Source: an uncultured Acidobacteriota bacterium (GTDB lineage: Bacteria > Acidobacteriota > Thermoanaerobaculia > UBA5066 > Gp7-AA6). Taken from it: a DNA stretch of 64,000 nucleotides. Made by a program: the position numbers and the translations under genes. The notes under the pieces are model-generated. The model did not search any database. It worked only from the letters and a program-made list of their open reading frames with translations, and had not been told where the DNA came from. Where the stretch lies: the NCBI GenBank assembly GCA_963742245.1, contig CAVULG010000007.1:572406-636405 (forward strand). The letters run 5' to 3'. Below, one piece after another: positions 8,188 to 64,000 of this stretch. How positions within the stretch are numbered: the first letter of the stretch is position 1; each line of letters opens with the position of its first letter.

Positions 8188-9610
8188 CCGGAAACCGGGC
8201 GCTCGCTTCGAAGGCGCGCGCCGCGGCGAACATCGCCTCCTCCCCGAAGCGCGGGGCGAGCACCTGGATCGCGAGCGGCAATCCCTCCCGCGTCAGGCCC
8301 GAGGGGACCGAGATGGCCGGGAGGCCGGCGAGCGACGCCGGAACGGTGAAGACGTCGGAGAGGTACATGGTCAGCGGGTCATCCGTCCTCTCGCCGAGCC
8401 GGAACGCCGGGCCCGGAATCGACGGGCAGACGATCACGTCGGCACGAGCGAACGCACGATCGAAGTCGTCGCAGAGAAGCTGGCGCGCCCGCGCGGCGAG
8501 ACCGTAGTACGCCTCGTAGTACCCCGACGCGAGCGCAAAGGTCCCGAGCAGGATCCGGCGCTTGACCTCCGGACCGAAGCCCGCCGTCCGGCTCTCGACG
8601 TAGAGCGCGGCGAGATCCTTGCCCTCGACCCGCGGCCCGTACCGCACGCCGTCGAAGCGCGCCAGGTTCGACGACGCTTCGGCGCTCGCGATGACGTAGT
8701 AGATGGCGATGGCGGCTTTGGCCCGCGGGACCGAGACCGAGACGACCTCGGCTCCCGCTTCACGGAAGATCCGCCGCGCGCGGTCCAGGTCCGCCGCGAC
8801 TTCGGGATCGAGCCCTTCCTCTTCGGCTTCCGCCAGAAACCCGACGCGCAAGCCCTCGACCCCCCGGCCAAGGGCCTCCTCGGGGGCGCCGACGGGGCAA
8901 TCCGCCGTCGTCGAATCGAGCGGGTCGAGGCCCGAGACGACCCGGTAGAGCCGCGCCGCGTCGGCGACGCTGCGGGTCAGCGGCCCGATCTGGTCGAGGG
9001 ACGAGGCGAAGGCGACGAGGCCGTAGCGCGAGACCCGGCCGTAGGTGGGCTTGAGACCCACGACGCCGCAACACGCGGCCGGCTGGCGGATCGATCCCCC
9101 CGTGTCCGAGCCGAAGCCCGCGGGCACGAAGCGCGCGGCCACGGCCGCGGCGCTGCCTCCGGAGGAGCCGCCCGGGATCCGGGAGAGGTCCCACGGGTTT
9201 CGGGTCGCGTGCGAGGAGCTGTTCTCCGTCGAGGACCCCATCGCGAACTCGTCCATGTTCGCGCGCCCGACGAAGACGGCGCCCGCCTGGCGCAGGCGGC
9301 CCGCGACCGTCGAATCGCCGGGCGGCGCGAACCCTTCCAGAATCCGGGACGCGCAGGTCGTTTTACGGCCGGCCACCCACATGTTGTCTTTCATCGCCAG
9401 CGGCACGCCGGCCAGGGGCAGGTCCTCGCCGGCGGCCACCCGGCGGTCCACTTCTTCGGCCTCGGCGAGGGCCTGCGAGGAGGTGACCTCGAGGAACGCG
9501 CGCACCCGCTCGTCCCCGTCCGCGATCGCCTGGAGGCTCTCGCGCGCCACGTCGACGGCCGATCGCCGGCGGGAGCTGACCTCCGCCGCGGTCTCGATGA
9601 CGCCGGACAT
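8162..9610 (-). CDS. gatA: Glutamyl-tRNA(Gln) amidotransferase subunit A
   Basis: Internal start MSGVIETAAEV (ATG 9608-9610) within ORF 8162..10027; amidase signature GGSSGGSAAAVAA...GSDTGGSIRQPA. Confidence 0.9.
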   Translation of the reverse strand: MSGVIETAAEVSSRRRSAVDVARESLQAIADGDERVRAFLEVTSSQALAEAEEVDRRVAAGEDLPLAGVPLAMKDNMWVAGRKTTCASRILEGFAPPGDSTVAGRLRQAGAVFVGRANMDEFAMGSSTENSSSHATRNPWDLSRIPGGSSGGSAAAVAARFVPAGFGSDTGGSIRQPAACCGVVGLKPTYGRVSRYGLVAFASSLDQIGPLTRSVADAARLYRVVSGLDPLDSTTADCPVGAPEEALGRGVEGLRVGFLAEAEEEGLDPEVAADLDRARRIFREAGAEVVSVSVPRAKAAIAIYYVIASAEASSNLARFDGVRYGPRVEGKDLAALYVESRTAGFGPEVKRRILLGTFALASGYYEAYYGLAARARQLLCDDFDRAFARADVIVCPSIPGPAFRLGERTDDPLTMYLSDVFTVPASLAGLPAISVPSGLTREGLPLAIQVLAPRFGEEAMFAAARAFEASARFPDALPSAAR

Positions 9611-9612
9611 GC

Positions 9613-9918
9613 CTAGCTCCCGGAGCCGACGACGCGGGGAACGACGCCGTAGCCGTGGACCTGCGCCGGGGAATTCGCGGCAAACGACTCGGCGCCCCGG
9701 CCGTCTCGCGGCGCATCCTCCCGCGCCGGCGTCGCGGCGGAGGGTCGCGCAGCCGCAAAGGCGTCCTCGGGGATCTGCTTCAACTGCTCGATGTACCCGA
9801 CGATGCGCGAGAGCTGCTCGGTCCAGAGAGGCAGCTCGGCCGCCGGCAGGCGGAGTCGGGCGAGCGCCGCGACCGCGCGCACCACGTCGGGAGTGACAAC
9901 ACGCGACGAGGATGACAT
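9613..9918 (-). CDS. gatC: Asp/Glu-tRNA amidotransferase subunit C
   Basis: C-terminal 101 codons of ORF 9613..11130 beginning MSSSSRVVTPDVVRAVAALARLRL; immediately upstream of gatA. Confidence 0.8.
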   Translation of the reverse strand: MSSSSRVVTPDVVRAVAALARLRLPAAELPLWTEQLSRIVGYIEQLKQIPEDAFAAARPSAATPAREDAPRDGRGAESFAANSPAQVHGYGVVPRVVGSGS

Positions 9919-9939
9919 CCTCGAAATTGTACCAGCCCG

Positions 9940-11208
9940 ATGCGCCGACGCCCCTCGCGCGACCCCTCTCGAGACCTCTTCCGCCTGAGGCGGCGGGCCG
10001 ACGTCCGCGCGCTCGCCGCCGCGGCATCGCGCGCGCGCATCGAAGCCTGGATCGTCGGCGGCGCCGTGCGCGATGCCCGCCTCGGTCTGCCGGTGCCGGA
10101 CGTCGACGTCGCCGTGTCGCGCGACGCGGAGGGGCTCGCGCGGGCCCTCGAGGAAGCCGGCGCGGGCCGCGCGATCTTTCTCTCGCGCGACCGGCCCGGG
10201 CCGCGCGTCTACCGGGTTGCGGGCCGCCGCACCCTCGACATCGCCGAGGTCGAGGGCGGCTCGATCGAGGCGGACCTCGAACGACGCGACTTCACGGTGA
10301 ACGCGATTGCCGTCCCCGTCCAGGCCGGCGCGGTGCTCGACCCGTTCGGGGGTCTCGAGGACCTCGCCCGGCGACGCCTGACACCCGTGCGCGCCGCGAA
10401 CCTCCGCGACGATCCGCTCCGCGCCCTGCGTGCCGCGCGCTTCCTCGCGACGCACCGCCTCGTGCCCACCCGGGAAACGCTGGCCGCCTCCCGGGCCGCG
10501 GCTCCGCACCTGTCGGCCGCGGCCGCGGAACGCATCGGCGGCGAGATCGCGAGAATCCTCGGAGCTCCCCGCGCCGCGCCCGCCGCGGCGTGGGCCGCGC
10601 GGGCCGGCATCCTGGCCGCGGCCCTGGGCGTCTCGCCGGAGATGGTCGCGCGGGCAGTCCGGGCGCTTGCCCCGTTCGACGACGCGGCGACACGAGGTCT
10701 CGCGGAGCCGCGGCGGCGTCGCATCCGCCTCGGGGCGCTCGCGTTCGCGCTCGGGCTCGAAGGCCGGCAGACCCGTGAATGGCTCGCGGCGCGCCGGCTG
10801 CCTCGAACCGACGTCGAGACGGCGGCGCGCCTGACCGAGCTCGCGCTCCAGGCGCTCGCGGGTCCCGGGCGGGGTGCACCGCGCCGGGAGGCCTGGCGCT
10901 GGATCCTGGATGCGGGGGCGCTCGCCCCCGACGCCCTGCACCTGCTGTCCCGGCTGGGCCGGCGCGCGCGCGACCGGGCCCGGACGCTCGCGCCGCTCAC
11001 GCGCCGCAAACCGCGGCGGGTCCGCTTGAGCGGCGAAGACGTCATGCTCTGGCTCGGCATCCCGGCCGGCCCGCAGGTTGGGCGCTGGCTGGAGGAACTT
11101 GCCGTGGCCGCCGCCGCCGGCGAGGTGCAAAGCCGGCGTGAAGCGCGGAACTGGCTGACCGGACAGGTCCGGGAAGCGCCCGCAGCGGCTATAATCCCTC
11201 TACATTGA
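9940..11208 (+). CDS. CCA tRNA nucleotidyltransferase / poly(A) polymerase family protein (start may lie ~60 nt downstream)
   Basis: ORF 9940..11208; IVGGAVRDARLGLPVPDVDVAV head-domain motif; only 21 bp separates it from divergent gatC, so start is uncertain. Confidence 0.7.
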   Translation: MRRRPSRDPSRDLFRLRRRADVRALAAAASRARIEAWIVGGAVRDARLGLPVPDVDVAVSRDAEGLARALEEAGAGRAIFLSRDRPGPRVYRVAGRRTLDIAEVEGGSIEADLERRDFTVNAIAVPVQAGAVLDPFGGLEDLARRRLTPVRAANLRDDPLRALRAARFLATHRLVPTRETLAASRAAAPHLSAAAAERIGGEIARILGAPRAAPAAAWAARAGILAAALGVSPEMVARAVRALAPFDDAATRGLAEPRRRRIRLGALAFALGLEGRQTREWLAARRLPRTDVETAARLTELALQALAGPGRGAPRREAWRWILDAGALAPDALHLLSRLGRRARDRARTLAPLTRRKPRRVRLSGEDVMLWLGIPAGPQVGRWLEELAVAAAAGEVQSRREARNWLTGQVREAPAAAIIPLH

Positions 11209-12659
11209 CTCTCGCCGAATTGCTCAAGTTCATGGCCAAGAAGGAGGCCTCCGACCTCCACTTGAAGCCCATGCGGCCGCCCTTGCTGCGCATCAAGGGC
11301 CGGCTGATCCCCTTGAACGCAGAGGCTTTGCAGCCCAAAGACCTCGAGGAGATGCTGCTCGCGATCCTCACTCCGGCGCAGCGCGAGCGCCTCGAGAAGA
11401 ACCAGTCCGTCGACGTCGGCTACGGCCTGACCGGGGTCGCCCGTTTCCGCTGCAACATTTTCGTCCAGCGGGGCTCGTACGCCGCGGTCTTCCGGCGGAT
11501 CCCGTTCAAGCTGCCCTCGATCTCCGAGCTCAACCTTCCCGACGTTCTCGAGACCTTCGTCCACCTGCCCAAGGGTCTGGTCCTCATCACCGGACCCACG
11601 GGCTCGGGCAAGTCGACGACGCTCGCGGGAATCATGCGCTCGATCATCGAAAAGCGGCCGGTCCACATCGTGACGATCGAGGATCCCATCGAGTTCCTCT
11701 TCGCCGACGGGAAGGCCGCCGTCTCGCAGCGCGAGGTCTCGACCGACTCCCCCAGCTTCGGCGAGGCGCTCAAGAACATGTTCCGGCAGGACCCGGACGT
11801 GATCATGGTCGGCGAGATGCGCGACTGGGGAACGATGCAGACCGCCATCACGGCGGCTGAGACCGGCCACCTCGTCTTCTCGACCCTCCACACCAACAGC
11901 GCCGCGCAGTCGATCGACCGCATCATCGATTCCTGTCCCCAGGAGCAGCAGGCCCAGGTCCGCTCGCAGCTTTCGATCGTCCTGCGCGCCATCGTCTCGA
12001 TGAACCTCATCGAGATCTCCGACGGGACCGGGCGCGCCGCGGTCGTCGAAGTCATGATCAACAGCCCGAAGGTCGAGAAGCACATCCTCTCCGGCGAGGT
12101 CAAAGAGATCCACGAGGAGATGGAGAACTCGGTCAATTACTACAAGATGCAGTCGATGAACCAATCCCTCATCGCGCTGCTCGTGAACAAGCGCATCACC
12201 TACGCGAAGGCGATGGAGATCTCGGTGGATCCGGAAGATCTGTCGCTCAAGCTGCGGAAACTCTTCCCGCAGATCGAGGAGAACCAGCGAGGAGGCCTCA
12301 TGGCGTCCGACAACGACTTTTCGCAGATCACCCAGTTGATCGAGATCAAGCGTCTGTACGAGGAGCAGGAAGAGAAGTGGAAACTGCGCCTCACGGAGAA
12401 AGAGGAAGAGCTCAACAAGTACCAGATGGAGCTGCGCGATCAGCGCAAGATCATCGAGGGCCGCGATCAGGTTCTGGGCGACGTCGAGGGCGAGAACAAC
12501 CGCCTCAAGGCCGACAACGACCGCGTCAGCCGCGAGTTCCAGCAGAAGATCGCGCAGTTGAACGAGCGGATCAAGGAGCTCAACCAGCGCCTCGTGGGTT
12601 CGGAGGGTGGCGGCCCCAAGGCCGCGGCCGGACAGGGCGGCGGCTTCTTCAAGAAGTAG
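11205..12659 (+). CDS. pilT: Type IV pilus retraction ATPase PilT family with ~130-aa C-terminal coiled-coil extension
   Basis: ORF 11205..12659; Walker A GPTGSGKSTT, PilT N-term MTLAELLKFMAKKEASDLHL; residues ~350-484 are E/K/R/Q-rich heptad-like (EEQEEKWKLRLTEKEEELNKYQMELRDQRK...) ending in Gly-rich tail; ATGA overlap with upstream cca gene. Confidence 0.8.
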   Translation: MTLAELLKFMAKKEASDLHLKPMRPPLLRIKGRLIPLNAEALQPKDLEEMLLAILTPAQRERLEKNQSVDVGYGLTGVARFRCNIFVQRGSYAAVFRRIPFKLPSISELNLPDVLETFVHLPKGLVLITGPTGSGKSTTLAGIMRSIIEKRPVHIVTIEDPIEFLFADGKAAVSQREVSTDSPSFGEALKNMFRQDPDVIMVGEMRDWGTMQTAITAAETGHLVFSTLHTNSAAQSIDRIIDSCPQEQQAQVRSQLSIVLRAIVSMNLIEISDGTGRAAVVEVMINSPKVEKHILSGEVKEIHEEMENSVNYYKMQSMNQSLIALLVNKRITYAKAMEISVDPEDLSLKLRKLFPQIEENQRGGLMASDNDFSQITQLIEIKRLYEEQEEKWKLRLTEKEEELNKYQMELRDQRKIIEGRDQVLGDVEGENNRLKADNDRVSREFQQKIAQLNERIKELNQRLVGSEGGGPKAAAGQGGGFFKK

Positions 12660-12727: not shown

Positions 12728-14134
12728 ATGCGCGGTGTGACGGCCGCCGCCGCGTTGCGCGCAACAGTTCTCTCGATCCTCTCGATCTTCCCGCTCCTCC
12801 CGGTCCGCCCGCTTTTCGCGGTCCCGGCAACCCCCGGGCCGGACTCGTTCGCTCTCACGCAGGCCGAGGCGCTCCTGGAGCGCCGCGACTACCGGGGCGC
12901 CGAGATCGCCCTGCGGAAGATTCTCGAGGCCGACCCGTCCAATGCCCGCGCCCACGGCAACCTCGCCCTGGCCCTCCTCGAACAGAAGCGCCTGCCGGAA
13001 GCCATCGACGAGGGCCGTCTGGCCGCGGCCTTCGCTCCGGATCTGCCGGAGGCCCGCTACATCTACGGGATGACCCTGTCGCGCGGCGGACGCCCGGTCG
13101 ACGCCGCCCGGGAGTTCGAGAAGGCCGTCGCCGGCCGACCCGACTCCCCGGGCCTCCTCGGCGCCCTCGCCGCGGCCTACGCCGCGACCGGGGACGACCG
13201 CACCGTGGCGACCTACACCCGGCTCATCGCCCTCAAGCCCGACGATCGCCGCGCGTACGTGGAGCTGTCCGAGTACCTCTGGCGGATCGACCGCCACGCC
13301 GAGGGCAACCGGGTCATCGCCGACGCGCGCAAGGCGTTTCCCGAGGATCGGGACGTCGCGCTGAGACAGGGGCGCGCCTTCGTCCACCAGGACCTCGCCG
13401 TCGACGCCGTCGCCGCCCTCGAGGCCGCCCGCCGCCTCGGAGCCGGGGACGCGGCGACGTTCGAGCTCCTGGCGAGCGCCTACGCGCGGACGAACACTCC
13501 CGGCGCGGCGCGGGGAGCCCTGGAGGCCGGGATCGCGGCGCACCCCGACGACGCGGCGCTGCGCCACGACCTCGGCCGCCTGTTGCTTTCGGAGGGAATG
13601 AGCGCCGAGGCCCTGCCGCAGCTCGAAAAGGCGGCCGCCTCCCCGGGAGCCACGGCGGCCATGGCGTTGGACCTCGGCCGGGCGCTCGAGGCGCTCGGAC
13701 GGCCCGCGGAGGCCGAGGCGGCCTTCCGGAGTGCGATCCGCCTCTCGCCCGGGCTGGCCGGCGCCCACTTCGCCCTGGGACGCCTGCTCCAGCGCCAGGG
13801 CCGCAAGGACGAGGCCGAGCGGGAGCTCGCGGCGCATCGCGATCTCTACGAGAAGGGCCTCCAGCGCGTGGCCGCGGCCGATGCGCGGTCGGCCGAGCTT
13901 AATCACGCCTGGGCCGAGCTCAATCACGGCAACGCGGTCTCCTCCCTGGCGCGCTTCCAGGCCCTGCCCGAGACGGCCGAGGTCCTGCGCGGGCGCGCCC
14001 TCGCCCTCTCGCGCATGGGCAAGCATCGCGACGCCGCGGCTTCGATCGCGCGGGCGCTCGAGCTCGCGCCCGGCGATCCCCGTCTCGAGCTCCTCCTCGT
14101 CACCGAGCGGTCCCGCGCGGGCACCGGTCCGTGA
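12728..14134 (+). CDS. Secreted TPR repeat protein
   Basis: Internal start MRGVTAAAALRATVLSILSIFPLLP (ATG 12728) in ORF 12377..14134; multiple TPR-like repeats. Confidence 0.65.
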   Translation: MRGVTAAAALRATVLSILSIFPLLPVRPLFAVPATPGPDSFALTQAEALLERRDYRGAEIALRKILEADPSNARAHGNLALALLEQKRLPEAIDEGRLAAAFAPDLPEARYIYGMTLSRGGRPVDAAREFEKAVAGRPDSPGLLGALAAAYAATGDDRTVATYTRLIALKPDDRRAYVELSEYLWRIDRHAEGNRVIADARKAFPEDRDVALRQGRAFVHQDLAVDAVAALEAARRLGAGDAATFELLASAYARTNTPGAARGALEAGIAAHPDDAALRHDLGRLLLSEGMSAEALPQLEKAAASPGATAAMALDLGRALEALGRPAEAEAAFRSAIRLSPGLAGAHFALGRLLQRQGRKDEAERELAAHRDLYEKGLQRVAAADARSAELNHAWAELNHGNAVSSLARFQALPETAEVLRGRALALSRMGKHRDAAASIARALELAPGDPRLELLLVTERSRAGTGP

Positions 14135-15792
14135 GCTTCCTCTCCCTCGCGCTCCTCGCGCTCCTCGGAGCTCCTCTCGGCGGCACGGCCGCGGCGGCGA
14201 CCGCGACGGCGACAGACTGCCCCGTAACGTTCTCCGACGTCGCTGCGGCGGCGGGGCTGCGATTCGTGCACGACCGCGGCGCCGCGGGCGAGCACCGGCT
14301 GCCGGAGATGATCGGCTCCGGAGTCGCCTGGCTCGACTACGACAACGACGGCTGGATGGACCTGTACGTCGTGCAGAGCGGCCCCTTCCCGCCCGCCGGA
14401 AGCATGAAGGCGCGCGACCGTCTCTACCGCAACCGCGGCGACGGCACGTTCGCCGACGTCACGGAACGCGCGGGCCTCGCCGACACGGCCTACGGGATGG
14501 GCGCGATCGCCGCCGACTTCGACAACGACGGCTTCGCCGACGTCTACGTCACCAACTGGGGCGGCAACCTCCTGCTCCGCAACCGGGGCGACGGTACGTT
14601 TGCCGACGTGACCGCGAAAGCCGGAGTGGCGGGCCCGCGCTGGGGCACGAGCGGCGCCTGGGGCGACGCGGACGGCGACGGACTCCTCGACCTCTTCGTC
14701 GCGCAGTACGCCGACGACCGCAAGGACAAGACGCTCTTCTGCGGCGACGCGACGACCGGCGAACGCGACTACTGCCCGCCGATCATGTACGACCCCACCG
14801 TCAGTGTCTTCTACCGCAACGCCGGAGGCGGGACCTTCCGGGATGCCACGCGCGAGGCCGGCCTCGACAAGGCGCAGGGCAAGGCGCTCGGGGTGGTCTT
14901 CGCCGACCTCGACCTCGACGGGAGGCAGGACGTCTACGTCGCCAACGACCAGATGATGAACCTTCTCTTCCGCAACCTCGGAGGCGGACGGTTCGAAGAT
15001 GCGTCTGTAACCTCCGGAACCGGCTTCGGTCTCGAGGGCCAGCCCCAGGGCGGCATGGGCGTCGACGCCGGCGATCTCGACGGCGACGGCCTGCCGGACC
15101 TCGCGGTGGCCAACTACGAGTACGAGACCAACGAGTACTACCGCAACCTCGGCGCGGGTGTGTTCGAGGACCTCTCGGTCTCCTCGAACTTCGGGCCGCC
15201 GACCCTGCCCTACGTGAAGTTCGGGCTCAATCTCGTCGACGTCGACAACGACGGCGACCTCGACGCGTTCATGGCCAACGGCCACATCTACGCGAAGCCC
15301 AAACGCCAGGGGGCCACGGCCGAGCAGAAGCCGCTGCTCCTGTGGAACGACGGCAAGGGCCGGTTCCGCTCACAGGGCTGCGGCCCGGTCTTCGAGGTCG
15401 CGCTCGTCGGCCGCGGCTCGGCCGTGGCGGACTACGACAACGACGGCGATCCCGACATCGCGGTGTCGAACTCCGGCGGGCAGCTGCAGCTTCTCCGAAA
15501 CGACGGCCGCGCCGGCCGCTGGGTCGGCGTCGCCCTGAAGGGCCGCAAGTCCAACCGCCAGGGGATCGGCGCGCGGCTCACCGCCGAGCTGCCGTCGGGC
15601 CGGAAGCTCCAACGGCTCGTGCAGGCCGGGTCGAGCTACCTCTCGACGTCGGACCCGCGCGTGCTTTTCGGCCTCGGGAACGAGGCGTCGATCCGCAAGC
15701 TCACGATCACATGGCCGTCCGGGATGGTCCAGACGGTGGCGGACCTTCCGGCGGGGAAGTACGCGACCATCGAAGAAACCGCTGCGAAATAG
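14131..15792 (+). CDS. CRTAC1 family protein (FG-GAP/VCBS repeats + ASPIC/UnbV C-terminal domain)
   Basis: ORF 14131..15792; signal peptide; repeated DxDxDGxxD-containing FG-GAP-like units (LDYDNDGWMDLYV, ADFDNDGFADVYV, GDADGDGLLDLFV); ATGA overlap with TPR gene. Confidence 0.8.
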   Translation: MSFLSLALLALLGAPLGGTAAAATATATDCPVTFSDVAAAAGLRFVHDRGAAGEHRLPEMIGSGVAWLDYDNDGWMDLYVVQSGPFPPAGSMKARDRLYRNRGDGTFADVTERAGLADTAYGMGAIAADFDNDGFADVYVTNWGGNLLLRNRGDGTFADVTAKAGVAGPRWGTSGAWGDADGDGLLDLFVAQYADDRKDKTLFCGDATTGERDYCPPIMYDPTVSVFYRNAGGGTFRDATREAGLDKAQGKALGVVFADLDLDGRQDVYVANDQMMNLLFRNLGGGRFEDASVTSGTGFGLEGQPQGGMGVDAGDLDGDGLPDLAVANYEYETNEYYRNLGAGVFEDLSVSSNFGPPTLPYVKFGLNLVDVDNDGDLDAFMANGHIYAKPKRQGATAEQKPLLLWNDGKGRFRSQGCGPVFEVALVGRGSAVADYDNDGDPDIAVSNSGGQLQLLRNDGRAGRWVGVALKGRKSNRQGIGARLTAELPSGRKLQRLVQAGSSYLSTSDPRVLFGLGNEASIRKLTITWPSGMVQTVADLPAGKYATIEETAAK

Positions 15793-36480: not shown

Positions 36481-37299
36481 TTACGGGAAGTACAACCCCA
36501 ACGCGATGGACAGGAAGGCGGCCATCTGGCCGCGCGTCACGGGGGCGGCCGGACAGAAGTTGCCCCCGCCGCAGCCGGCCGTGATCCCGGATGCCGCCAA
36601 GGCCTCGATGTGCTGGAAGAACTGGTGATTCGTAGGCACGTCGGCGAACGTGGCTGTGCCGGGCGGCGTCGAGATCTGGCGCTTCCACTGAACGCGGAGC
36701 TTGTTGACTCTGTGGTCGGGGTACACGCCGTCCAGCTGCAGCCGAACGGTGTAGTAGCAATCGCGGTTGTTGACCGTAAAACCGCCGCCGCTGAGGAGGC
36801 CGGACTGGTACCCGGAGGAACCGGTGGTAGCGCCATCCGCCAGAACCGTGACGGTGGGCGGGCCGGGCGCGAAACTCGGCTGGCAGGTCGAGGTGACCGA
36901 AAAGAACACGTCCTCGTCGGCATCCGAATCGTAGGCCCACCAACGGAATGCTTCGACCTGCACCCCCGTCGGAAGGACCATGGGCGCGAAGCAATAACCC
37001 GTACAGACGATGTCCGTCGTGCCGCTGATCCATCCATCGGATTCAAACTGGGCAACGAATTCGGCCGGCATCACCGTGGTGAAGTGGGTATCCGCGCCCC
37101 AGTCTTCGGGCAACTCCGAGGGGGTCCCGTCCAGGCTCTTGGCGCGATAGACGTTCGTCGCGTCACGCGGGAAGCCCAGCGCCTCGAGCTGGTCCGGATC
37201 GGTCACGGGCGTACGCTCGATCTCGGGAACCTGCGCGAGGCCATTGGCCTCCAGGACGGCCGCGAGAACCGGGAGCAGTAACCAGCGAAGACGGTTCAT
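36481..37299 (-). CDS. Secreted Cys-containing beta-rich protein with single C-terminal SLH-like domain (GCGGGNFCP variant)
   Basis: Internal start MNRLRWLLLPVLAAVLEANGLAQ (ATG 37297-37299) in ORF 36481..37359; C-term FADVPTNHQFFQHIEALAASGITAGCGGGNFCPAAPVTRGQMAAFLSIAL. Confidence 0.6.
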   Translation of the reverse strand: MNRLRWLLLPVLAAVLEANGLAQVPEIERTPVTDPDQLEALGFPRDATNVYRAKSLDGTPSELPEDWGADTHFTTVMPAEFVAQFESDGWISGTTDIVCTGYCFAPMVLPTGVQVEAFRWWAYDSDADEDVFFSVTSTCQPSFAPGPPTVTVLADGATTGSSGYQSGLLSGGGFTVNNRDCYYTVRLQLDGVYPDHRVNKLRVQWKRQISTPPGTATFADVPTNHQFFQHIEALAASGITAGCGGGNFCPAAPVTRGQMAAFLSIALGLYFP

Positions 37300-51997: not shown

Positions 51998-52041
51998 GAC
52001 TCCTTGCCTACCCTCCCCCCGCGCCGCGCAGACGCCCGAAC

Positions 52042-53160
52042 ATGACCGGCTTCATCATAGCGACAGGCTACGGCAACAAGTCCGTTCCGAACTACTTCTT
52101 CGCGCTCGGCCGGGAGCTGGCCCGCCGCGGCCACGAGGTCCTCCTCCTCGTCGACGGCCAACGCCACGACGCCGAGGTCACCGCGGGCAACCCGCGGGTC
52201 CTGACCTGGCCCTCGCGCCGCCCGACCCGCTTGCGCGATGCCCTCTTCCTGCGTCGGCAGATCCGTGCGATGCGGCCGGGCGCCGTGCTGGCAAACTTCG
52301 GGTCCGTCAACGTCTCCCTGCTCGTCGCGTCCTGGAGCGGGGTGCCGACGCGCGTCGCCTGGTACCACACGCTGACACGGCAACTCCAGATCGACCATTC
52401 GGAGCACCGGCTCAAGCGCAGCCTGCAAGCATGGCGCAAGAGGCTGGTGTACCGGCTCGCCACAAACCTGATCGCCGTCAGCGAAGCCGCGCGGGCGGAC
52501 CTCGTGCAGAGCTTTCGCGTCGATCCCGCCCGGACGCTCGCGCTGCCGCTTCTGCTCCCCGACCCGGCGCCCGCCGTGCCCGTTTCGGCGACGTCCCAGC
52601 GCATCATCTGTGTCGGCCGACTCGACGAATCCAAAGGCCAGGCGACGCTGATTCGCGCCCTTCCTGCCGTCCGCGCCGCCGTTCCGGGCGCCTCTCTGGA
52701 GCTCGTCGGCGACGGCCCCGCGCGCCCGGACTACGAGGGGCTCGCCGCGTCGCTCGGCCTGGGCCCGGCCTGCGCATTTCTCGGCTGGCGCCCGTTCGAG
52801 GAAACGATGGCGCGGCTGGCATCCGCGCGGGCGGCCGTCGTCGCGAGCCAGTCCGAAGCGCTGGGCCTCGCGGCGATCGAAGCCCTCGCGCTGGGCGTCC
52901 CCGTCGTCGCGTCGCGGGTCGACGGACTCGCGGAGATCGTCGTCGATGGGAGCACGGGCTATCTCGTCACTCCCGGAGATCCGGCAGCGCTCGCCGACCG
53001 GCTCATCCTCCTCCTGCGCGACGACGATCTGCGCCGGCGCCTCGGCGCGAACGCGCGCCAGCGTTTCCTCGACGTCTTCTCGAGCGGAGGCATCGGCCGG
53101 CACGCCGACGTCCTGGAGAACCTCTGCGGGGGCGGCCCGCGCCTTTTCCCCCAGCCCTAG
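52042..53160 (+). CDS. Glycosyltransferase family 4 (GT-B, glycos_transf_1)
   Basis: ORF 52042..53160; C-terminal ...EALGLAAIEALALGVPVVASRVDGLAEIVVDGSTGYLV typical GT4 EX7E region; only plus-strand gene within the core block. Confidence 0.8.
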   Translation: MTGFIIATGYGNKSVPNYFFALGRELARRGHEVLLLVDGQRHDAEVTAGNPRVLTWPSRRPTRLRDALFLRRQIRAMRPGAVLANFGSVNVSLLVASWSGVPTRVAWYHTLTRQLQIDHSEHRLKRSLQAWRKRLVYRLATNLIAVSEAARADLVQSFRVDPARTLALPLLLPDPAPAVPVSATSQRIICVGRLDESKGQATLIRALPAVRAAVPGASLELVGDGPARPDYEGLAASLGLGPACAFLGWRPFEETMARLASARAAVVASQSEALGLAAIEALALGVPVVASRVDGLAEIVVDGSTGYLVTPGDPAALADRLILLLRDDDLRRRLGANARQRFLDVFSSGGIGRHADVLENLCGGGPRLFPQP

Positions 53161-58479: not shown

Positions 58480-61362
58480 TCAGCGGCCCGGGGGTCGGGC
58501 TCCGGGGATGCGGCGAACGGGCCGGGCCGGTCTGGCCGTCGGGCCCAACCCGAAGGTCCTCACCAGGAACGTGGACATCTGCCCGCGCGGGGTGGCCGCC
58601 GTCGGGCAGTAGTTCCCGCCCCCGCAGCCGACCGTGATGCCCTCGGCCGCGAGCTGATTGATCCAGTTCACGTTCGGTCCGCTCGGGCACGGGACGTCGT
58701 CGAAGACCGTGCCGGAGCAGGCGGGCGGCTCATAGCTCGAGCCGTGCTCGCCGAGCAGGAGGAAGACGGCCATCTGGGCCCGCGTCAGCGGGCTGCCCGG
58801 GCAATAGTTGCCGCCCCCGCAGCCGCCCGTGATGCCCTCCGCCGCGAGCTGATTGATCCAGTCGACGTTCAGGCCGCTCGGGCACGGCACGTCGGCGAAA
58901 ACCGTCCCGCTGCAGGCCGGCGGCGTGTAGCCGCCTCCGTGCACCCCCTTCAGAAGGAACACCGCCATCTGCGCGCGCGTGACGAGATTCGCGGGGCAGT
59001 AGTTGCCTCCCCCGCATCCCGCCGTGACGCTGGCCCGGAAGATCGACTCGATGTCGCCGTGGAAGATGTTCGACGACGGAACGTCCGAAAAGTCGGCGAA
59101 CCAGGCGTTCGCGAGCGTGCCGATCGGCGCGCTGGCGGGGTTGTCGACCGTCACGTCGTTGAGGGTGCCGGCCACGAGCGCGGGCGCCGAGGCGGTGAGG
59201 GAGCCCGGGCCGACGACCACGACTCCCGAAGCCGGAACGCCGCCGATCGCCAGCGTCGCCCCGCTCGCAAAGCCCGACCCGGACACGGTCACCGGTGTCC
59301 CTCCCGCGGCCGCGCCCGACGTCGGGGCGATGCTGGTGACGGCGGTTCCGCCCGGAGTCGTCGTCGGAGTCGGCGTCGGGGTCCGCGTGGGGGTCCGCGT
59401 CGGCGTGGGCGTCCGGCTGGGCGTCGGCGTGTTGGTCGGTGTGGCGGTGGTGAAGCTCGCGGTGTACGTCGTGTCGTCCGCGGGTGTCGCGATGTCGTGC
59501 GTCTGGCTTCCGCCGTCGGACCACGACTGGAAGTGGTACGTGTTGCCGCCCGACGACTGGGGCGAGGGAGCGCCGATCGCGCGCGTCACGTTCTCGACGC
59601 TCACGACCGTCTGCGGCGCCGTGAACGGCTGCCCGTCGAGCGTCAGCTGAAGCCCGGTCGGGCCCGTCCCCAGCGTGAGCGAGGAGGTCCGCGGGATCAC
59701 GTCCACGAACTTCTCGTCCGTGAGCGTCGCCGGATCCTTCACCGAGAGATAGAGCCGGTACCAGACGTTCGGCGACGTTTCGCCGACCGTCGGAATCGTG
59801 AAGGCGCCCGTCGCCGAACCGGTGGTCGGCGGCAGGAACGGGTGAAAGTGGGTATCGTGATGGAAGTTCACCCACCACGTGAAGGCGCTTCCCGGCAGCG
59901 CGCCCGTTTCCGGATCCGAGCCCGTTCCCGAGTAGTTGATCGTGTCCCCGGCGGCGTAGGTCGTGCCCGCCGGCGGCGCCGTGATCGTCGCCACGGGCGG
60001 CTGGTTGGTCGTCACCGACAGGGTCGCGGCCGCGCTCGTGTCGTCGCCGGAGGCGTTCGACACGACGCAGCGGAACTGGTCGCCGTCGTCGCCGATCACG
60101 ACGGAGGCGATCGTGTACGAGGAGGAGGTCGCACCGCCGATGTCCGCACCCTCGCGCTGCCATTGATAGGACAGCGGCGCGTCGCCCGTCGCGCTCACCG
60201 TGAACGTCACGGGATGTCCGGTCGAGATCAGCTGGCTCTGCGGGTCCTCGGTGACGACCGGATCCCCGGTGCCGGTGTAATTGACCTTGTAGACGCGACC
60301 CTGGCCCCGGGCGATGTAGTAGAGGTTGCCGTTGAAGTCCACGTGGACGTCGACGGGACTCGAGATGCCGGTCGCGAACGTCGTCGCCGAGGGATTACCG
60401 GAAGCCGGATCGACGTATCGGATCCAGCCCGCGCAATAGTCGGCGTAGAAGTACTTGCCGACGTAGCTCGCCGGAAACTGCGGCACGTCCGGGGCGTAGA
60501 AGTCTCCGCCGGCGATCGAGCAGGCGCCCCCGCTGTGGGGATAGAAGAAAAAGGGATCGGTGAACTCGGGGTCCGGCGGGCTGCAATCGCCTTCGCAATC
60601 CGGCCATCCGTAGTTCGCCCCCGCGCTCCCGACGTTGATCTCCTCCCAGGTCACCTGGCCGACGTCGTTGATGAAGATGACGCCCGTGTCGGGATGCACG
60701 GCGAAGGTGAACGGATTGCGAAGCCCGAGCGTCCAGATGGCGCGGTTGTTCCCGGTCGTGTCGTTGAAAAAGGGGTTGTCGGTCGGGATGAGCGCCTCCG
60801 GCGGTACGCCGACGCGGAGCACCTTGCCGAGGAGGTTGCCGAGCGTCTGCGAGTTCGACCCGTTCGCGTTGTCGCCGACCGCGACGTAGAGTTTGCCGTC
60901 CGCGCCGAAGTGGATCGCTCCCCCGTTGTGGTTCGTCGCACCCGACAGGTTGTTGAGCTCGAGCAGATTGACCTGGCTTCCGGCGAGGGCGACGTCGCCG
61001 TTGGCCGTCAGCCGCGCCAGCCGGTTGTGGGGCGGCGACCCGGGCACCGTGTAATAGACGTAGACGTACTGATTGAGCAGGAAGTTGGGGTCGAAGGCCA
61101 CGCCGAGAAGCCCGCGCTCCCCCATCGGATCGACCGAGAGCGTGACGAAGGGCGTCGCGAGTAAGGCGCCGTTCTTGATGATGCGGAGCTGTCCCCCCTG
61201 CTGGCAGACGAAAAGGCGCCCGTCGGGAGCCACGGCCATGGCCGTCGCGTTGGAGAGGCCCGAATAGGACACCTCGGTGAAGCCCGTGGGCAGCGTGGCG
61301 CCTCCCGAGAAGACGGCGAGGGCGAGCGCGGCCGCCGCGGCGGAAAGAACACGGGATCTCAT
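58480..61362 (-). CDS. Large cell-surface protein: signal peptide + PQQ-dependent sugar dehydrogenase-like beta-propeller + Ig-like + PKD-like + T/P linker + IPT/TIG + 3x SLH-like repeats (GCGGGNYCP variant)
   Basis: Internal start MRSRVLSAAAAALALAVFSGGA (ATG 61360-61362) in ORF 58480..62046; GSDH-like GLLGVAFDPNF...VYVYYT; Ig PVVTEDPQSQLISTGHPVTFTVSATG...FRCVVSN; IPT GGTPVTVSGSGFASGATLAIGGVPASGVVVVG; three repeats F.DVP...GITxGCGGGNYCP...TRAQMAVFLL. Confidence 0.75.
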   Translation of the reverse strand: MRSRVLSAAAAALALAVFSGGATLPTGFTEVSYSGLSNATAMAVAPDGRLFVCQQGGQLRIIKNGALLATPFVTLSVDPMGERGLLGVAFDPNFLLNQYVYVYYTVPGSPPHNRLARLTANGDVALAGSQVNLLELNNLSGATNHNGGAIHFGADGKLYVAVGDNANGSNSQTLGNLLGKVLRVGVPPEALIPTDNPFFNDTTGNNRAIWTLGLRNPFTFAVHPDTGVIFINDVGQVTWEEINVGSAGANYGWPDCEGDCSPPDPEFTDPFFFYPHSGGACSIAGGDFYAPDVPQFPASYVGKYFYADYCAGWIRYVDPASGNPSATTFATGISSPVDVHVDFNGNLYYIARGQGRVYKVNYTGTGDPVVTEDPQSQLISTGHPVTFTVSATGDAPLSYQWQREGADIGGATSSSYTIASVVIGDDGDQFRCVVSNASGDDTSAAATLSVTTNQPPVATITAPPAGTTYAAGDTINYSGTGSDPETGALPGSAFTWWVNFHHDTHFHPFLPPTTGSATGAFTIPTVGETSPNVWYRLYLSVKDPATLTDEKFVDVIPRTSSLTLGTGPTGLQLTLDGQPFTAPQTVVSVENVTRAIGAPSPQSSGGNTYHFQSWSDGGSQTHDIATPADDTTYTASFTTATPTNTPTPSRTPTPTRTPTRTPTPTPTTTPGGTAVTSIAPTSGAAAGGTPVTVSGSGFASGATLAIGGVPASGVVVVGPGSLTASAPALVAGTLNDVTVDNPASAPIGTLANAWFADFSDVPSSNIFHGDIESIFRASVTAGCGGGNYCPANLVTRAQMAVFLLKGVHGGGYTPPACSGTVFADVPCPSGLNVDWINQLAAEGITGGCGGGNYCPGSPLTRAQMAVFLLLGEHGSSYEPPACSGTVFDDVPCPSGPNVNWINQLAAEGITVGCGGGNYCPTAATPRGQMSTFLVRTFGLGPTARPARPVRRIPGARPPGR

Positions 61363-61424: not shown

Positions 61425-64000
61425 CTAAGGGCGCGGCGAACGCGGCCGCACGGGCGGCCGGGCGACCGGTCCCTGGCGCAAGGTCGAACCGAGGCCGAAC
61501 GTGCGGACCAGGAAAGTCGCCATCTGCTGGCGCGGGGTCGCGGCGAGCGGGCAGAAGTTGCCGCCGCCGCAGCCCGCCGAGATGCCCTCGGCCGCGAGCT
61601 GGCCGATCCAGGCGGCGTACTGGCTGGGGCACGCCACGTCGCCGAAGACCTGCTGGCAGTCGGGCGGCACATAGGCGGACCCGTGCTCGCCGCGGAGGAG
61701 GAACACCGACATCTGCTGGCGGGTGACCGGGGTGTCGGGACAATAGAGGAGCGGGCTCGTCGCGCAACCCGACGTGATGCCCCGGTTGTAGAAGTCCTCG
61801 ATCCAGGCTGCGGCGAATGCATTGGCCGGAACGTCCGCGAAGAGGGTTCCGGTCGCCGCAGGCGGCTGGTATCCCGCACCGAGAGCGGACTTGAGGATGA
61901 GCACGGCCATCTGGGCCCGCGTGACGAGCCCCAGCGGGCAGTAGAGGCCGCCGCCGCATCCGCCCGTCACGCCGTTCCGGAAGGTCGCCTCGATGTCGTC
62001 GTGGAAGGGGTTCGTCTGGGGAACGTCGGCGAAGTCGGCGAACCACCCGTCGTCGAGGGTTCCACTCAGCGTCACGCGCTTGCCCAGCGCGAGCGCGGTC
62101 GTCACGGTGACGTCATTGAGCGTTCCGGCGGTCAACGATGGAATCGCGGCCGTAATGTTCGTCGGGCCGTGAACCACCACGGCCGTCGCCGGCGCGCCGC
62201 CCACCGAAACCGTAGCGCTCGCGGCAAAGTTGGTTCCGTCGATCGCGACCACGGTGCCTCCGCCCGCGGGGCCCGAGTTCGGCGCGATCCCCGAAACCGA
62301 CGGCGCTCCGGGCACCGGCGTCAGAGTCGCCGTCGGCGTCGCTGAGGCGGTCGGGGTGCGCGAAGGCGTTCGCGTCGGGGTCATGGACGGCGTCGTGGTC
62401 GTGGGCACGGCGGTGGCCGTCCAGGTCGGAGTCGCGGTGTTCGTCGCGGTGAAGGTCCGCGTGGCCGTGAACGAGGCTGTGGTCGTGGGAGGGATCGGCG
62501 TCGGCGTGTGGGTCGGCGTATTCGTCGGTGGCTGGGCAGTCAGCGTCGGCGTCGCGGTTTGCGTCGGCGTCGGGCCGCCAGCAACCGTCACATCCACCCC
62601 GTCGAAGACGCTCGTGCAAAGCAGAGAGTCGTTGTGGCTCGTGAGGGACAGACCCACGAGGACCGAAGCTGCCATCGGGATGGAATCGGAGCCGACGAGC
62701 GTCCAGGCCAGGCCGTCCGGCGAGTGAAACGCGCTGACGGTCGATCCCGTCCGCGTGAGACGCACCCAATACGGCGCCGCAACGAGCGGTCCCGGCGTGT
62801 GCGAAGTCGTGCCGCCGGTGCTGCTGCGCCGCTGGAAGGCGAGGCCGTTGACCGGCGTCATCGCCAGCATCGCGTGCCGGGAATCGGCGTTGAGCGACTC
62901 GCGGATCATGACGCCCCCCTTGGCCCAGGCGTCGGTGTTCTGGATGCTCGCGACCCGCGCGGTGATCGTCCCGTCGCCGGTGAGCGGCTGATAGACGAAG
63001 CCGAACTCGTCGGACTGCCCCTCGATGTCCTCGCCCGAGGCGAGGGCCGTGAACGCCCCCGACCCGAAAGTCGCGGTCCCCGCCACCCCCACCGGTCCGA
63101 CGTCCAGCCGGAGCCAGGGTGCCGGAAGCGGAAGCGGCGTCGCGGTCGCGGTCGGCGTTCGGGAGGGGGTGAACGACGCCGTCACCGTCGGGTGCAGCGG
63201 CGTCGGCGTCCGTGTCGCCGTGTTCGTCGGCGGCTGCGGCGTGGTCGTAACGGTTGGAGTCCGCGACGGCGTGAACGACGCCGTCACCGTCGGCGGCAGC
63301 GGCGTCGGCGTCCGTGTCGCGGTGTTCGTCGGCGGCTGCGGCGTGGTCGTAACGGTTGGAGTCCGCGACGGCGTGAACGACGCCGTCACCGTCGGCGGCA
63401 GCGGCGTCGGTGTCCGTGTCGCGGTGTTCGTCGGCGGCAGCGGCGTGGTCGTGACGGTCGGCGTCCGGGACGGGGTAAAGGACGCCGTCACCGTCGGCGG
63501 CAGCGGCGTCGGCGTGCGCGTCGCCGTATTCGTCGGCGGCTGCGGCGTGACCGTGGAAGTCGTGGTCGGCGTCCGGCTCGCGGTCGCCGTGAGCGTCGGC
63601 GTCGCGGTCTGTGTCGGCGTCGGACCCCCGGAGGCCGCGGTCACGGCGTCGAAGACGGCCGTGCCCAGAAGGGAGTCGTTGTGACTCGTGTAGGCCAGCC
63701 CGACGAGGACCGAAGCCGCCATCGAGATCGTATCGGACCCGACGAGGGTCCAGGCCACGCCGTCCGGCGAACGAAACGCGGCGATGCCCGTTCCCGCGCG
63801 CGTCACGCGCACCCAGTACGGCGCGCCGACGAGTGGTCCGGGCGTGTGCGCGGTCGTCCCCCCGGTGCTGGTGCGCCGCTGGAAGGCCATCCCGTTGAGA
63901 GGCGTCAGCGCCAGCATCGCGTGCTTCGAATTGGCGGCCAGCGACTCGCGGATCATCACGCCGCCCTTGGCCCAGGGGTTGGTGTTCTGGATGCTCGCCA
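61425..64000 (-). CDS. Large cell-surface protein, 5'-partial (continues beyond window): tandem ConA-like/DUF1349-like lectin modules separated by Thr/Pro-rich repeats + IPT/TIG + 3x SLH-like repeats
   Basis: ORF 61425..63959 remains open to window end (…ASIQNTNPWAKGGVMIRESL); duplicated module AWAKGGVMIRESLxAxSxHAML...PYWVRxTRxG; IPT GGTVVAIDGTNFAASATVSVGG; SLH-like repeats with GCGGGLYCP / GCATSPLLYCP / GCGGGNFCP. Confidence 0.7.
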   Translation of the reverse strand, partial: ASIQNTNPWAKGGVMIRESLAANSKHAMLALTPLNGMAFQRRTSTGGTTAHTPGPLVGAPYWVRVTRAGTGIAAFRSPDGVAWTLVGSDTISMAASVLVGLAYTSHNDSLLGTAVFDAVTAASGGPTPTQTATPTLTATASRTPTTTSTVTPQPPTNTATRTPTPLPPTVTASFTPSRTPTVTTTPLPPTNTATRTPTPLPPTVTASFTPSRTPTVTTTPQPPTNTATRTPTPLPPTVTASFTPSRTPTVTTTPQPPTNTATRTPTPLHPTVTASFTPSRTPTATATPLPLPAPWLRLDVGPVGVAGTATFGSGAFTALASGEDIEGQSDEFGFVYQPLTGDGTITARVASIQNTDAWAKGGVMIRESLNADSRHAMLAMTPVNGLAFQRRSSTGGTTSHTPGPLVAAPYWVRLTRTGSTVSAFHSPDGLAWTLVGSDSIPMAASVLVGLSLTSHNDSLLCTSVFDGVDVTVAGGPTPTQTATPTLTAQPPTNTPTHTPTPIPPTTTASFTATRTFTATNTATPTWTATAVPTTTTPSMTPTRTPSRTPTASATPTATLTPVPGAPSVSGIAPNSGPAGGGTVVAIDGTNFAASATVSVGGAPATAVVVHGPTNITAAIPSLTAGTLNDVTVTTALALGKRVTLSGTLDDGWFADFADVPQTNPFHDDIEATFRNGVTGGCGGGLYCPLGLVTRAQMAVLILKSALGAGYQPPAATGTLFADVPANAFAAAWIEDFYNRGITSGCATSPLLYCPDTPVTRQQMSVFLLRGEHGSAYVPPDCQQVFGDVACPSQYAAWIGQLAAEGISAGCGGGNFCPLAATPRQQMATFLVRTFGLGSTLRQGPVARPPVRPRSPRP
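63169..63576. repeat. Tandem repeat, 102-bp unit x 4 (encodes PQPPTNTATRTPTPLPPTVTASFTPSRTPTVTTT linker units)
   Basis: Unit gtgaacgacgccgtcaccgtcgg..gcagcggcgtcggcgtccgtgtcgc.gtgttcgtcggcggctgcggcgtggtcgtaacggttggagtccgcgacggc starts at 63169, 63271, 63373, 63475 (last copy diverged). Confidence 0.85.

Follow-up and report, generated by a model that had tools for sequence, protein, structure and literature searches.

Three genes, here called A, B and C, lie on the minus strand of a 64,000-nucleotide stretch of contig CAVULG010000007.1 from an uncultured Acidobacteriota bacterium (the window), and their products share C-terminal repeats built around a Gly-rich loop between two cysteines. Do these repeats represent a new way of holding proteins at the cell envelope, or S-layer homology (SLH) domains in a modified form, and what is the role of their cysteines? 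In textbooks, SLH domains figure as the non-covalent anchor that Gram-positive bacteria and diderm Terrabacteria use at their wall. An earlier sequence-only reading of the window had described the repeats as a Cys-locked SLH variant that could define a new envelope-anchoring family. Our analysis identifies the repeats of A, B and C as genuine SLH domains of a Cys-bearing sub-type (Cys-SLH), whose cysteine pairs, as judged from their covariation, are probably disulfide staples, two per repeat. It appears fairly likely that A, B and C are exported proteins docked by C-terminal, Cys-stapled SLH domains on a wall glycan pyruvylated by a CsaB-type enzyme. The host belongs to the Thermoanaerobaculia, whose database entries include ribosomal proteins S12 identical to that of the window, in agreement with the Acidobacteriota-like cell assumed earlier.

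Seven Cys-bearing repeats in three proteins

The window encodes seven repeats with a G-C-x5(7)-C-P loop, all located where the sequence-only reading had placed them, with a single copy in A and a triplet each in B and C. The Cys loop is conserved in all seven, but it is less uniform than first described. Six loops follow the pattern G-C-x5-C-P, with the sequence GCGGGN[YF]CP or, once, GCGGGLYCP with Leu instead of Asn, whereas the remaining one is of the type G-C-x7-C-P (GCATSPLLYCP). The regular expression GC.{3,8}[YFW]CP finds these seven matches in the six-frame translation of the window and no match beyond genes A, B and C; shuffled windows contain on average 0.1-0.34 matches and never more than 2. 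A second motif, PPxC-x8/9-C-P, surrounds an F-x-D-V-P segment at three of the four inter-repeat junctions, and at the junction between SLH1 and SLH2 of C both of its cysteines are absent jointly. The modules of B and C (the latter at 61428-62057) are 63% identical. In B, a 195-nt DNA tandem period at 58603-59027 identifies SLH2 and SLH3 as duplicates. The description of the proteins as giant was overstated, as A has 272, B 960 and C more than 857 residues.

The repeats belong to the SLH family

The SLH domain is catalogued as Pfam PF00395 and PROSITE PS51272. The Pfam model matches B, A and C with 39.4, 37.5 and 24.2 bits, all above its gathering cut-off of 20.8 bits, and is also found in 58 of 60 homologues (best E 3e-27). 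When PDB sequences are searched with phmmer, the sole matches are the SLH domains of Bacillus anthracis Sap (6bt4, 3pyw), and the loops align free of gaps. GCGGGNYCP aligns column for column with GNDKGMFEP of Sap, so that the loop keeps its length, its aromatic residue and its Pro, and only the flanking positions have become Cys. The earlier statement that the canonical segment is replaced by a Cys motif is therefore correct for these two positions, but not for the rest of the loop. Searching a plasmid collection with tblastn retrieves Bacillus and Lysinibacillus SLH proteins, all of the canonical Bacillus type, which cover 86-93% of the triplet at 26-30% identity.

The AlphaFold model of the B triplet (predicted local distance difference test, pLDDT, 92.2; predicted TM-score, pTM, 0.86) contains two helices per repeat. 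Its input alignment of 51 rows comprises the query, 49 true homologues and one out-of-frame row of C; the same alignment underlies the GTDB genome search and the profile search of cluster representatives described below, and the effect of the out-of-frame row is marginal. In Foldseek, the only significant PDB matches of the model are the SLH trimers of Sap and SpaA, led by 3pyw (E 5e-9, TMt 0.83) and including 6bt4 and entries beginning with 6cw and 7sv; the SpaA entries have a TMt of 0.72-0.81. The SLH layout proposed from the sequence is thus borne out, with PF00395 above its cut-off in all three proteins and a modelled fold that matches 3PYW and 6CWC.

That the repeats are a new anchoring family merely resembling SLH, or that the motif arose by chance or from the base composition of a GC-rich window, retains next to no probability. 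The Gly/Cys-rich motif does use GC-rich codons and the window is 68% GC, but seven motif matches stand against at most 0.34 expected in shuffles, 7,753 cluster representatives match at E ≤ 1e-30, and the Pfam, phmmer, tblastn and fold searches all put the module within SLH. The motif shuffles and the Pfam, phmmer and fold searches already contradict this alternative. The proposal of a new envelope-anchoring family also fails, because the module is an SLH sub-type with thousands of homologues already annotated as PF00395 or, by NCBI, as 'S-layer homology domain-containing protein', and hence part of a known, annotated domain family. The scan of NCBIfam and Pfam revealed no model specific to the Cys sub-type, NCBIfam giving only weak matches to the SLH part of NF033190. 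Literature searches returned nothing relevant on SLH proteins in Acidobacteriota and no description of this variant under cysteines or disulfides in SLH domains; in the paper on LysBT1, an enzyme with SLH and cysteines, all of its cysteines are reported to be free of disulfide bonds, and the variant seen here is not described. Cys-SLH is a common, automatically annotated and apparently undescribed variant of a known anchor.

Ligand-binding residues are retained

SLH numbering and ligand residues follow Blackler 2018 (PMC6081394). In the SLH fold, three loops line separate grooves, and the conserved ligand motifs are Trp13, GIIxG ending in Gly29, and TRAE with Arg43 (PMC6081394). No SLH residue is more conserved than Gly29, whose backbone flips over to form a hydrogen bond with the carboxylate of pyruvate; Arg43 forms a salt bridge to pyruvate, and Trp13 serves as the stacking residue (PMC6081394). 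In the window, the Gly preceding the first loop cysteine corresponds to Gly29 and the Arg of TRAQ, PRGQ or TRQQ to Arg43, both being present in 7/7 repeats, and the loop cysteines occupy SLH positions 30 and 36. Trp13 is found in 4/7 repeats, namely repeats 2 and 3 of B and C, with Asp or His at this position in the first or only repeats.

The same residues prevail in a wider set of 500 repeats, drawn from 148 proteins that represent clusters at 50% identity. Gly29 is present in 490/492 and Arg43 in 489/494 (gaps excluded), the Trp13 position is aromatic in 409/500, and the fourth residue of the TRAE motif is Gln in 423/500. TRAQ is a functional natural variant in SLH3 of SpaA, and unequal repeats are documented for SpaA and SlhA (PMC6081394). 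Since Trp13 occurs in repeats 2 and 3 and not in the first, two fully equipped grooves per triplet are predicted.

Two independent cysteine pairs

A hidden Markov model (HMM) built from the seven window repeats collected 404 unique repeats from 147 open reading frames (ORFs) of the window and 80 related genomic loci; the 500-repeat set described above is separate. Each cysteine pair is essentially all-or-none in both sets. The loop pair is complete in 387 of the 404 repeats, missing in 11 and represented by a single Cys in one; the corresponding numbers in the larger set are 472, 12 and 2. For the junction pair, both cysteines are found in 185 repeats, neither in 122 and one in five (163, 197 and 5 in the larger set), and the five single-Cys cases among the 404 are mostly alignment artefacts with the Cys in an insert column. 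Moreover, the loop pair occurs without the junction pair in 116 of the 404 repeats, and the two pairs vary independently of each other. In a sub-clade of five proteins (L078 3763-6543, L071 4099-6543, L027 937-3537, L077 572-3067 and L039 9618-11882), SLH1 lacks both loop cysteines and reads GVGGGNYGV.

Because each pair is all-or-none and the pairs are mutually independent, two separate disulfides per repeat are favored over a four-ligand metal site. The sequence-only reading had left the choice between a disulfide and a metal clasp; a cysteine lock is plausible and strongly supported by the pair covariation, but a clasp is unlikely. That the cysteines form a metal clasp, for example of the Zn-Cys4 type, or act as redox or catalytic thiols instead of forming disulfides is very unlikely. 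Repeats 2 and 3 have four cysteines each, and a metal ion could be enclosed by the Gly-rich C-x5-C loop, but the repeats with the loop pair only, at least 116, preclude a conserved four-ligand site, and the independent occurrence of the two pairs speaks against Zn-Cys4. In addition, the pairs of different repeats cannot combine, since the loops line separate grooves in the SLH fold, and these are exported proteins whose cargo domains are Cys-rich too, as expected of disulfide-bonded extracytoplasmic proteins.

Distribution among Acidobacteriota and Chloroflexi

Thousands of metagenomic proteins, mainly of Acidobacteriota and some of Chloroflexi, carry the Cys-loop module, which answers the question of its spread raised by the first reading. 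With the triplet as query, a 90%-clustered collection yields 3,178 proteins at E ≤ 1e-3, and nearly all of the 120 matches listed carry a precomputed PF00395 annotation, several being named SLH. Among 1.84 billion representatives of 50% clusters, 7,753 match the profile at E ≤ 1e-30; at E ≤ 1e-3, the number rises to 127,086 and includes canonical SLH. The GTDB species genomes yield at least 557 matches. The best 80 of these derive nearly all from metagenome-assembled genomes (MAGs) of Acidobacteriota/Thermoanaerobaculia, often with several loci per genome and with tandem gene arrays, one of which (L077) contains five Cys-SLH genes.

Also among the best 80 are robust matches on long contigs of Anaerolineae-type Chloroflexi, comprising Ca. 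Villigracilis (L022, L040, L073) and L056, L066 and L079, with CFX5 and groundwater MAGs among them. Their Cys-SLH triplets are 56-61% identical to those of Acidobacteriota, and this sequence similarity suggests transfer between the two phyla. One match is gammaproteobacterial (the Sedimenticola MAG L074), possibly through an error of binning.

Of 147 ORFs, 125 carry the module as a triplet, and 135 have it within 60 residues of the C-terminus. The cargo of the homologues comprises IPT/TIG domains, M12 reprolysin-like and S8 proteases, GH44, beta-helices, Vgb-lyase/SGL/NHL propellers, LamG and GSDH. As the cargo is varied and the position C-terminal, the Cys-SLH module is best described as a general C-terminal retention tag for exported proteins.

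CsaB orthologues accompany Cys-SLH genes in relatives

All ORFs of the 80 related loci were searched with phmmer for csaB, with Escherichia coli WcaK as the seed. Three matches were obtained, in L021, L038 and L048. Against TIGR03609, the CsaB equivalog model with a cut-off of 213.1 bits, they score 214.5, 202.6 and 202.2 bits, and all match PF04230. The three loci share one gene order, in which two tandem Cys-SLH genes are followed by a gene for an OmpR-type regulator, further genes and csaB, located 4.7 kb downstream of the second SLH gene. In L048, a GT2 glycosyltransferase follows downstream of csaB in the same reading frame. The CsaB homologues include an NCBI entry named 'polysaccharide pyruvyl transferase CsaB [Thermoanaerobaculia bacterium]' and an Anaerolineales protein. 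Since relatives encode CsaB orthologues, in one case at a distance of 4.7 kb from Cys-SLH genes, canonical anchoring on a pyruvylated glycan is the best explanation.

An SLH fold directed at a target other than a CsaB-pyruvylated wall polymer is rather unlikely, and so is each candidate for it: an anionic glycan (lipopolysaccharide, capsule or exopolysaccharide), polyamine-modified peptidoglycan as in OmpM of Negativicutes, or an S-layer or sheath protein. According to a published survey, Gracilicutes practically lack SLH and CsaB, and Chloroflexi have lost them; a precedent for a switch of ligand is given by SLH domains with cadaverine-modified peptidoglycan as their target. The prevalent Gln in place of the fourth TRAE residue, the first repeats without Trp13, and csaB being found neither in the scanned window genes nor, among listed homologues, on the window contig point in the same direction. 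On the other hand, the pyruvate-contacting Gly29 and Arg43 are nearly invariant, TRAQ is functional in SpaA SLH3 (PMC6081394), and CsaB matches at equivalog level occur beside Cys-SLH genes in the same clade and in Anaerolineales.

Proposed mode of anchoring

In the anchoring on pyruvylated glycan that we favor, A, B and C would be exported through the Sec pathway, as their N-terminal signal peptides indicate. They would then fold oxidatively in an extracytoplasmic compartment with two disulfides per repeat, in line with the covariation and the Cys-rich cargo domains. The loop disulfide between SLH-30 and SLH-36 (C-x5-C) would close the groove-lining loop right after Gly29. In SpaA, this loop is conformationally mobile and limits binding in groove 1 (PMC6081394). 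The junction disulfide (C-x8/9-C) would staple the inter-repeat junction around F-x-D-V-P and stiffen the linker threading between the domains. Together, the disulfides may pre-organise, rigidify and stabilise the binding grooves and the linkers.

The triplets of B and C are predicted with high confidence to fold into a pseudo-threefold 'three-pronged spindle'. Having a single repeat, A would need to trimerise to build such a spindle. Proteins with a single SLH domain act as trimers, as reported for LysBT1 and for OmpM/SlpA; by analogy, the OmpM/SlpA trimers are a possible model for A. The grooves would hold a pyruvylated, peptidoglycan-associated glycan, a ligand suggested by the CsaB of the clade, through the Gly29 backbone, Arg43 and, in repeats 2 and 3, Trp13. 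The sugar dehydrogenase propeller of B, the ConA-like lectin domains of C and the beta-sandwich of A, which resembles a carbohydrate-binding module (CBM), would thereby be held non-covalently at the wall, possibly at its periplasmic face in a diderm cell or at the outer surface.

Several observations weigh against this reading. Trp13 is absent from repeat 1 of B, repeat 1 of C and the sole repeat of A. The csaB gene, which the sequence-only reading had advised looking for, is present near Cys-SLH genes in the three related MAGs, but the Pfam scan of 20 window genes, which include ribosomal and housekeeping genes and those for a GT4 glycosyltransferase, Amidase_3 and a T2SSE ATPase, reveals no PF04230 gene, and among the top 120 CsaB homologues listed none lies on the 1.27-Mb contig of the window. 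CsaB is therefore established for the clade and not for this genome. Furthermore, the loci L021, L038 and L048, from three Acidobacteriota/Thermoanaerobaculia MAGs, are syntenic, so that their linkage counts as one independent event. The disulfide case likewise consists of covariation among related sequences, whose counts are for that reason not independent events, and the sub-clade lacking the loop cysteines of SLH1 has acquired one Cys, within 'HG(L/S/I)C(Y/F)' immediately ahead of the following junction, which leaves an odd number of cysteines, nine, in the module. Finally, GH44 and protease cargo would be expected outside the outer membrane of a diderm Acidobacteriota cell.

Architecture of proteins A, B and C

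B comprises, in order, a Sec signal peptide, a GSDH propeller, an Ig domain, an unassigned region, a Pro/Thr-rich linker, an IPT/TIG domain, three Cys-SLH repeats and an Arg/Pro-rich tail (Table 1). The TIG+SLH arrangement recurs in 20 of 60 homologues. C contains at least two DUF1349 (ConA-like) domains, repeated Pro/Thr-rich linkers, an IPT/TIG domain, three Cys-SLH repeats and an Arg/Pro tail. Most homologues end 0-4 residues past SLH3, and a few close relatives (P0003, P0006) possess such a tail. The Pro/Thr-rich linkers between the lectin-like domains of C are encoded by a near-perfect 102-bp tandem repeat at 63169-63549 (3.7 copies, 93% matches), and the linker of B by short repeats of 12 and 18 bp at 59353-59430. 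These linker-encoding repeats are likely to vary in length between strains.

The cargo domain of A, about 140 residues long, is a predicted beta-sandwich (pLDDT 79) with weak similarity to CBM6, CBM22 and CBM35 (Foldseek E ~1e-4, TMt ≤0.55). A belongs to a family of proteins of about 285 residues with several paralogues per genome. A protein with 50-52% identity occupies the position of A in a second Thermoanaerobaculia genome (L082 6001-6864), which points to a conserved and possibly highly expressed envelope protein embedded in the rpoBC-str region. Other envelope or secretion genes of the window encode an Amidase_3 protein with a long N-terminal extension (6439-8292, minus) and a T2SSE-type ATPase (11142-12656, plus). 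Further genes encode an FG-GAP/ASPIC repeat protein (13903-15789, plus) and the GT4 glycosyltransferase (52000-53157, plus). None of the four is a pyruvyltransferase.

Table 1 Genes, domains and Cys motifs of A, B and C in the window, and csaB genes in related loci.
Feature	Position	Strand	Details
Gene A	36481..37299	minus	272 aa: signal peptide, beta-sandwich, one C-terminal Cys-SLH (aa ~211-272, nt 36484-36669); between rpoC and rpsL
A loop	36550-36576	minus	GCGGGNFCP, single copy
Gene B	58480..61362	minus	960 aa; ORF list and Pfam (GSDH 5e-49, Ig_3, TIG, SLH)
B cargo	60409..61251	minus	pyrroloquinoline quinone (PQQ)-type glucose/sorbosone dehydrogenase beta-propeller, GSDH (PF07995), aa 38-318; 167.8 bits; TIGR03606 sub-threshold
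B IPT/TIG domain	59137..59340	minus	aa 675-742, directly upstream of SLH triplet; Pfam
B SLH1	58924..59100	minus	loop pair C783/C789; TRAQ; Asp at SLH-Trp13 position
B SLH2	58729..58923	minus	junction pair C817/C827 (PPACSGTVFADVPCP); loop pair C848/C854; Trp13, Gly29 and Arg43 present
B SLH3	58537..58728	minus	junction pair C882/C892; loop pair C913/C919; PRGQ; Trp13 present
B loops	58993-59019, 58798-58824, 58603-58629	minus	GCGGGNYCP, three copies
B C-terminal tail	58483..58536	minus	18 aa, Arg/Pro-rich (ARPARPVRRIPGARPPGR)
Gene C	61425..>64000	minus	>857 aa; N-terminus (5' end) outside window
C SLH1	61866..62057	minus	loop pair GCGGGLYCP; TRAQ
C SLH1 loop	61935-61961	minus	GCGGGLYCP
C SLH2	61668..61865	minus	both junction Cys absent (PPAATG…DVPANA); C-x7-C loop GCATSPLLYCP; TRQQ
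C SLH2 loop	61737-61769	minus	GCATSPLLYCP
C SLH3	61482..61667	minus	junction pair (PPDCQQVFGDVACP); loop pair GCGGGNFCP; PRQQ
C SLH3 loop	61548-61574	minus	GCGGGNFCP
C C-terminal tail	61428-61481	minus	18 aa, Arg/Pro-rich (LRQGPVARPPVRPRSPRP)
csaB, L021	11260-12537		phmmer, TIGR03609, PF04230
csaB, L038	11156-12547		phmmer, TIGR03609, PF04230
csaB, L048	within 9036-12542		phmmer, TIGR03609, PF04230

Comparison with known SLH systems

Cys-SLH shares with Sap of B. anthracis (3PYW, 6BT4) and SpaA of Paenibacillus alvei (6CWC) three tandem repeats of about 60-65 residues, each of two helices plus a loop of the same length, as well as GIIxG/Gly29, TRAE/Arg43 and, in repeats 2 and 3, Trp13. The pseudo-threefold spindle is common to them as well (TMt 0.77-0.84). 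The identity in structural alignments is 12-22%. Cys-SLH differs in that Cys replaces polar residues at positions 30 and 36, the junctions bear another Cys pair, and TRAQ rather than TRAE is usual. Moreover, it is C-terminal rather than N-terminal, and its host belongs to a Gracilicutes phylum and is presumed diderm, whereas Sap and SpaA come from monoderm Firmicutes.

In overall layout, B and C resemble Cel5I of Ruminiclostridium cellulolyticum (PMC4976890) and Xyn10B of Caldicellulosiruptor (PMC6556019), in which an enzyme or CBM is followed by a linker and a C-terminal SLH triplet. The SLH exoenzymes of Clostridia and Thermoanaerobacterales are likewise hydrolases kept on the cell, with many paralogues per genome, but their SLH domains are Cys-free and their hosts monoderm. 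In Cys-SLH proteins, the main cargo types are propellers, M12 proteases and lectin-like domains, and the triplet frequently follows an IPT/TIG domain.

OmpM, SlpA and Slp of diderm Terrabacteria combine a single N-terminal SLH domain with a beta-barrel; the likeness to Cys-SLH is that of SLH in a diderm envelope with a wall-linked periplasmic ligand. A, B and C are not tethers of the OmpM/SlpA kind, as they have neither beta-barrel nor coiled coil, their SLH domains are C-terminal, and B and C carry one-chain triplets. Their cargo differs as well, being GSDH, Ig, TIG and DUF1349 domains in B and C and a small beta-sandwich in A. With the CsaB/SLH system (Mesnage 2000, as cited in the survey above), the Cys-SLH clade shares CsaB orthologues at or near the TIGR03609 threshold, encoded near Cys-SLH genes. 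It differs from that system in belonging to the Gracilicutes, where the same survey reports near absence; co-occurrence is known from related genomes, and the glycan of Cys-SLH hosts is a presumed one.

Implications for envelope anchoring

Cys-SLH brings no new anchoring principle; its new part is the putative two disulfides per repeat. The analysis points to a large, paralogue-rich SLH sub-family centred on Acidobacteriota, a phylum previously regarded as almost devoid of SLH/CsaB, with CsaB in related genomes, and to one covarying Cys pair directly beside the pyruvate-binding, flipping glycine. Should the disulfides be confirmed, SLH/CsaB would have a wider range than known so far, a clue would be gained to how abundant uncultured soil and sediment Acidobacteriota retain their hydrolases, and a naturally stapled SLH scaffold would be at hand for studies of loop rigidity and ligand binding and for surface-display engineering.

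A broader proposal, which we put forward tentatively, is that Thermoanaerobaculia, which are Gracilicutes and presumed diderm, and some Anaerolineae run a complete SLH/CsaB display of many exoenzymes and lectin-like proteins per cell, exchanged horizontally between the two phyla, with disulfide-locked SLH domains whose rigid grooves would depart from the Firmicute prototype in affinity, stability or specificity. If true, the disulfide-locked display would constitute a redox-dependent, hyperstable anchoring tag, and a complete system in Thermoanaerobaculia would overturn the view of SLH/CsaB anchoring as restricted to Terrabacteria.

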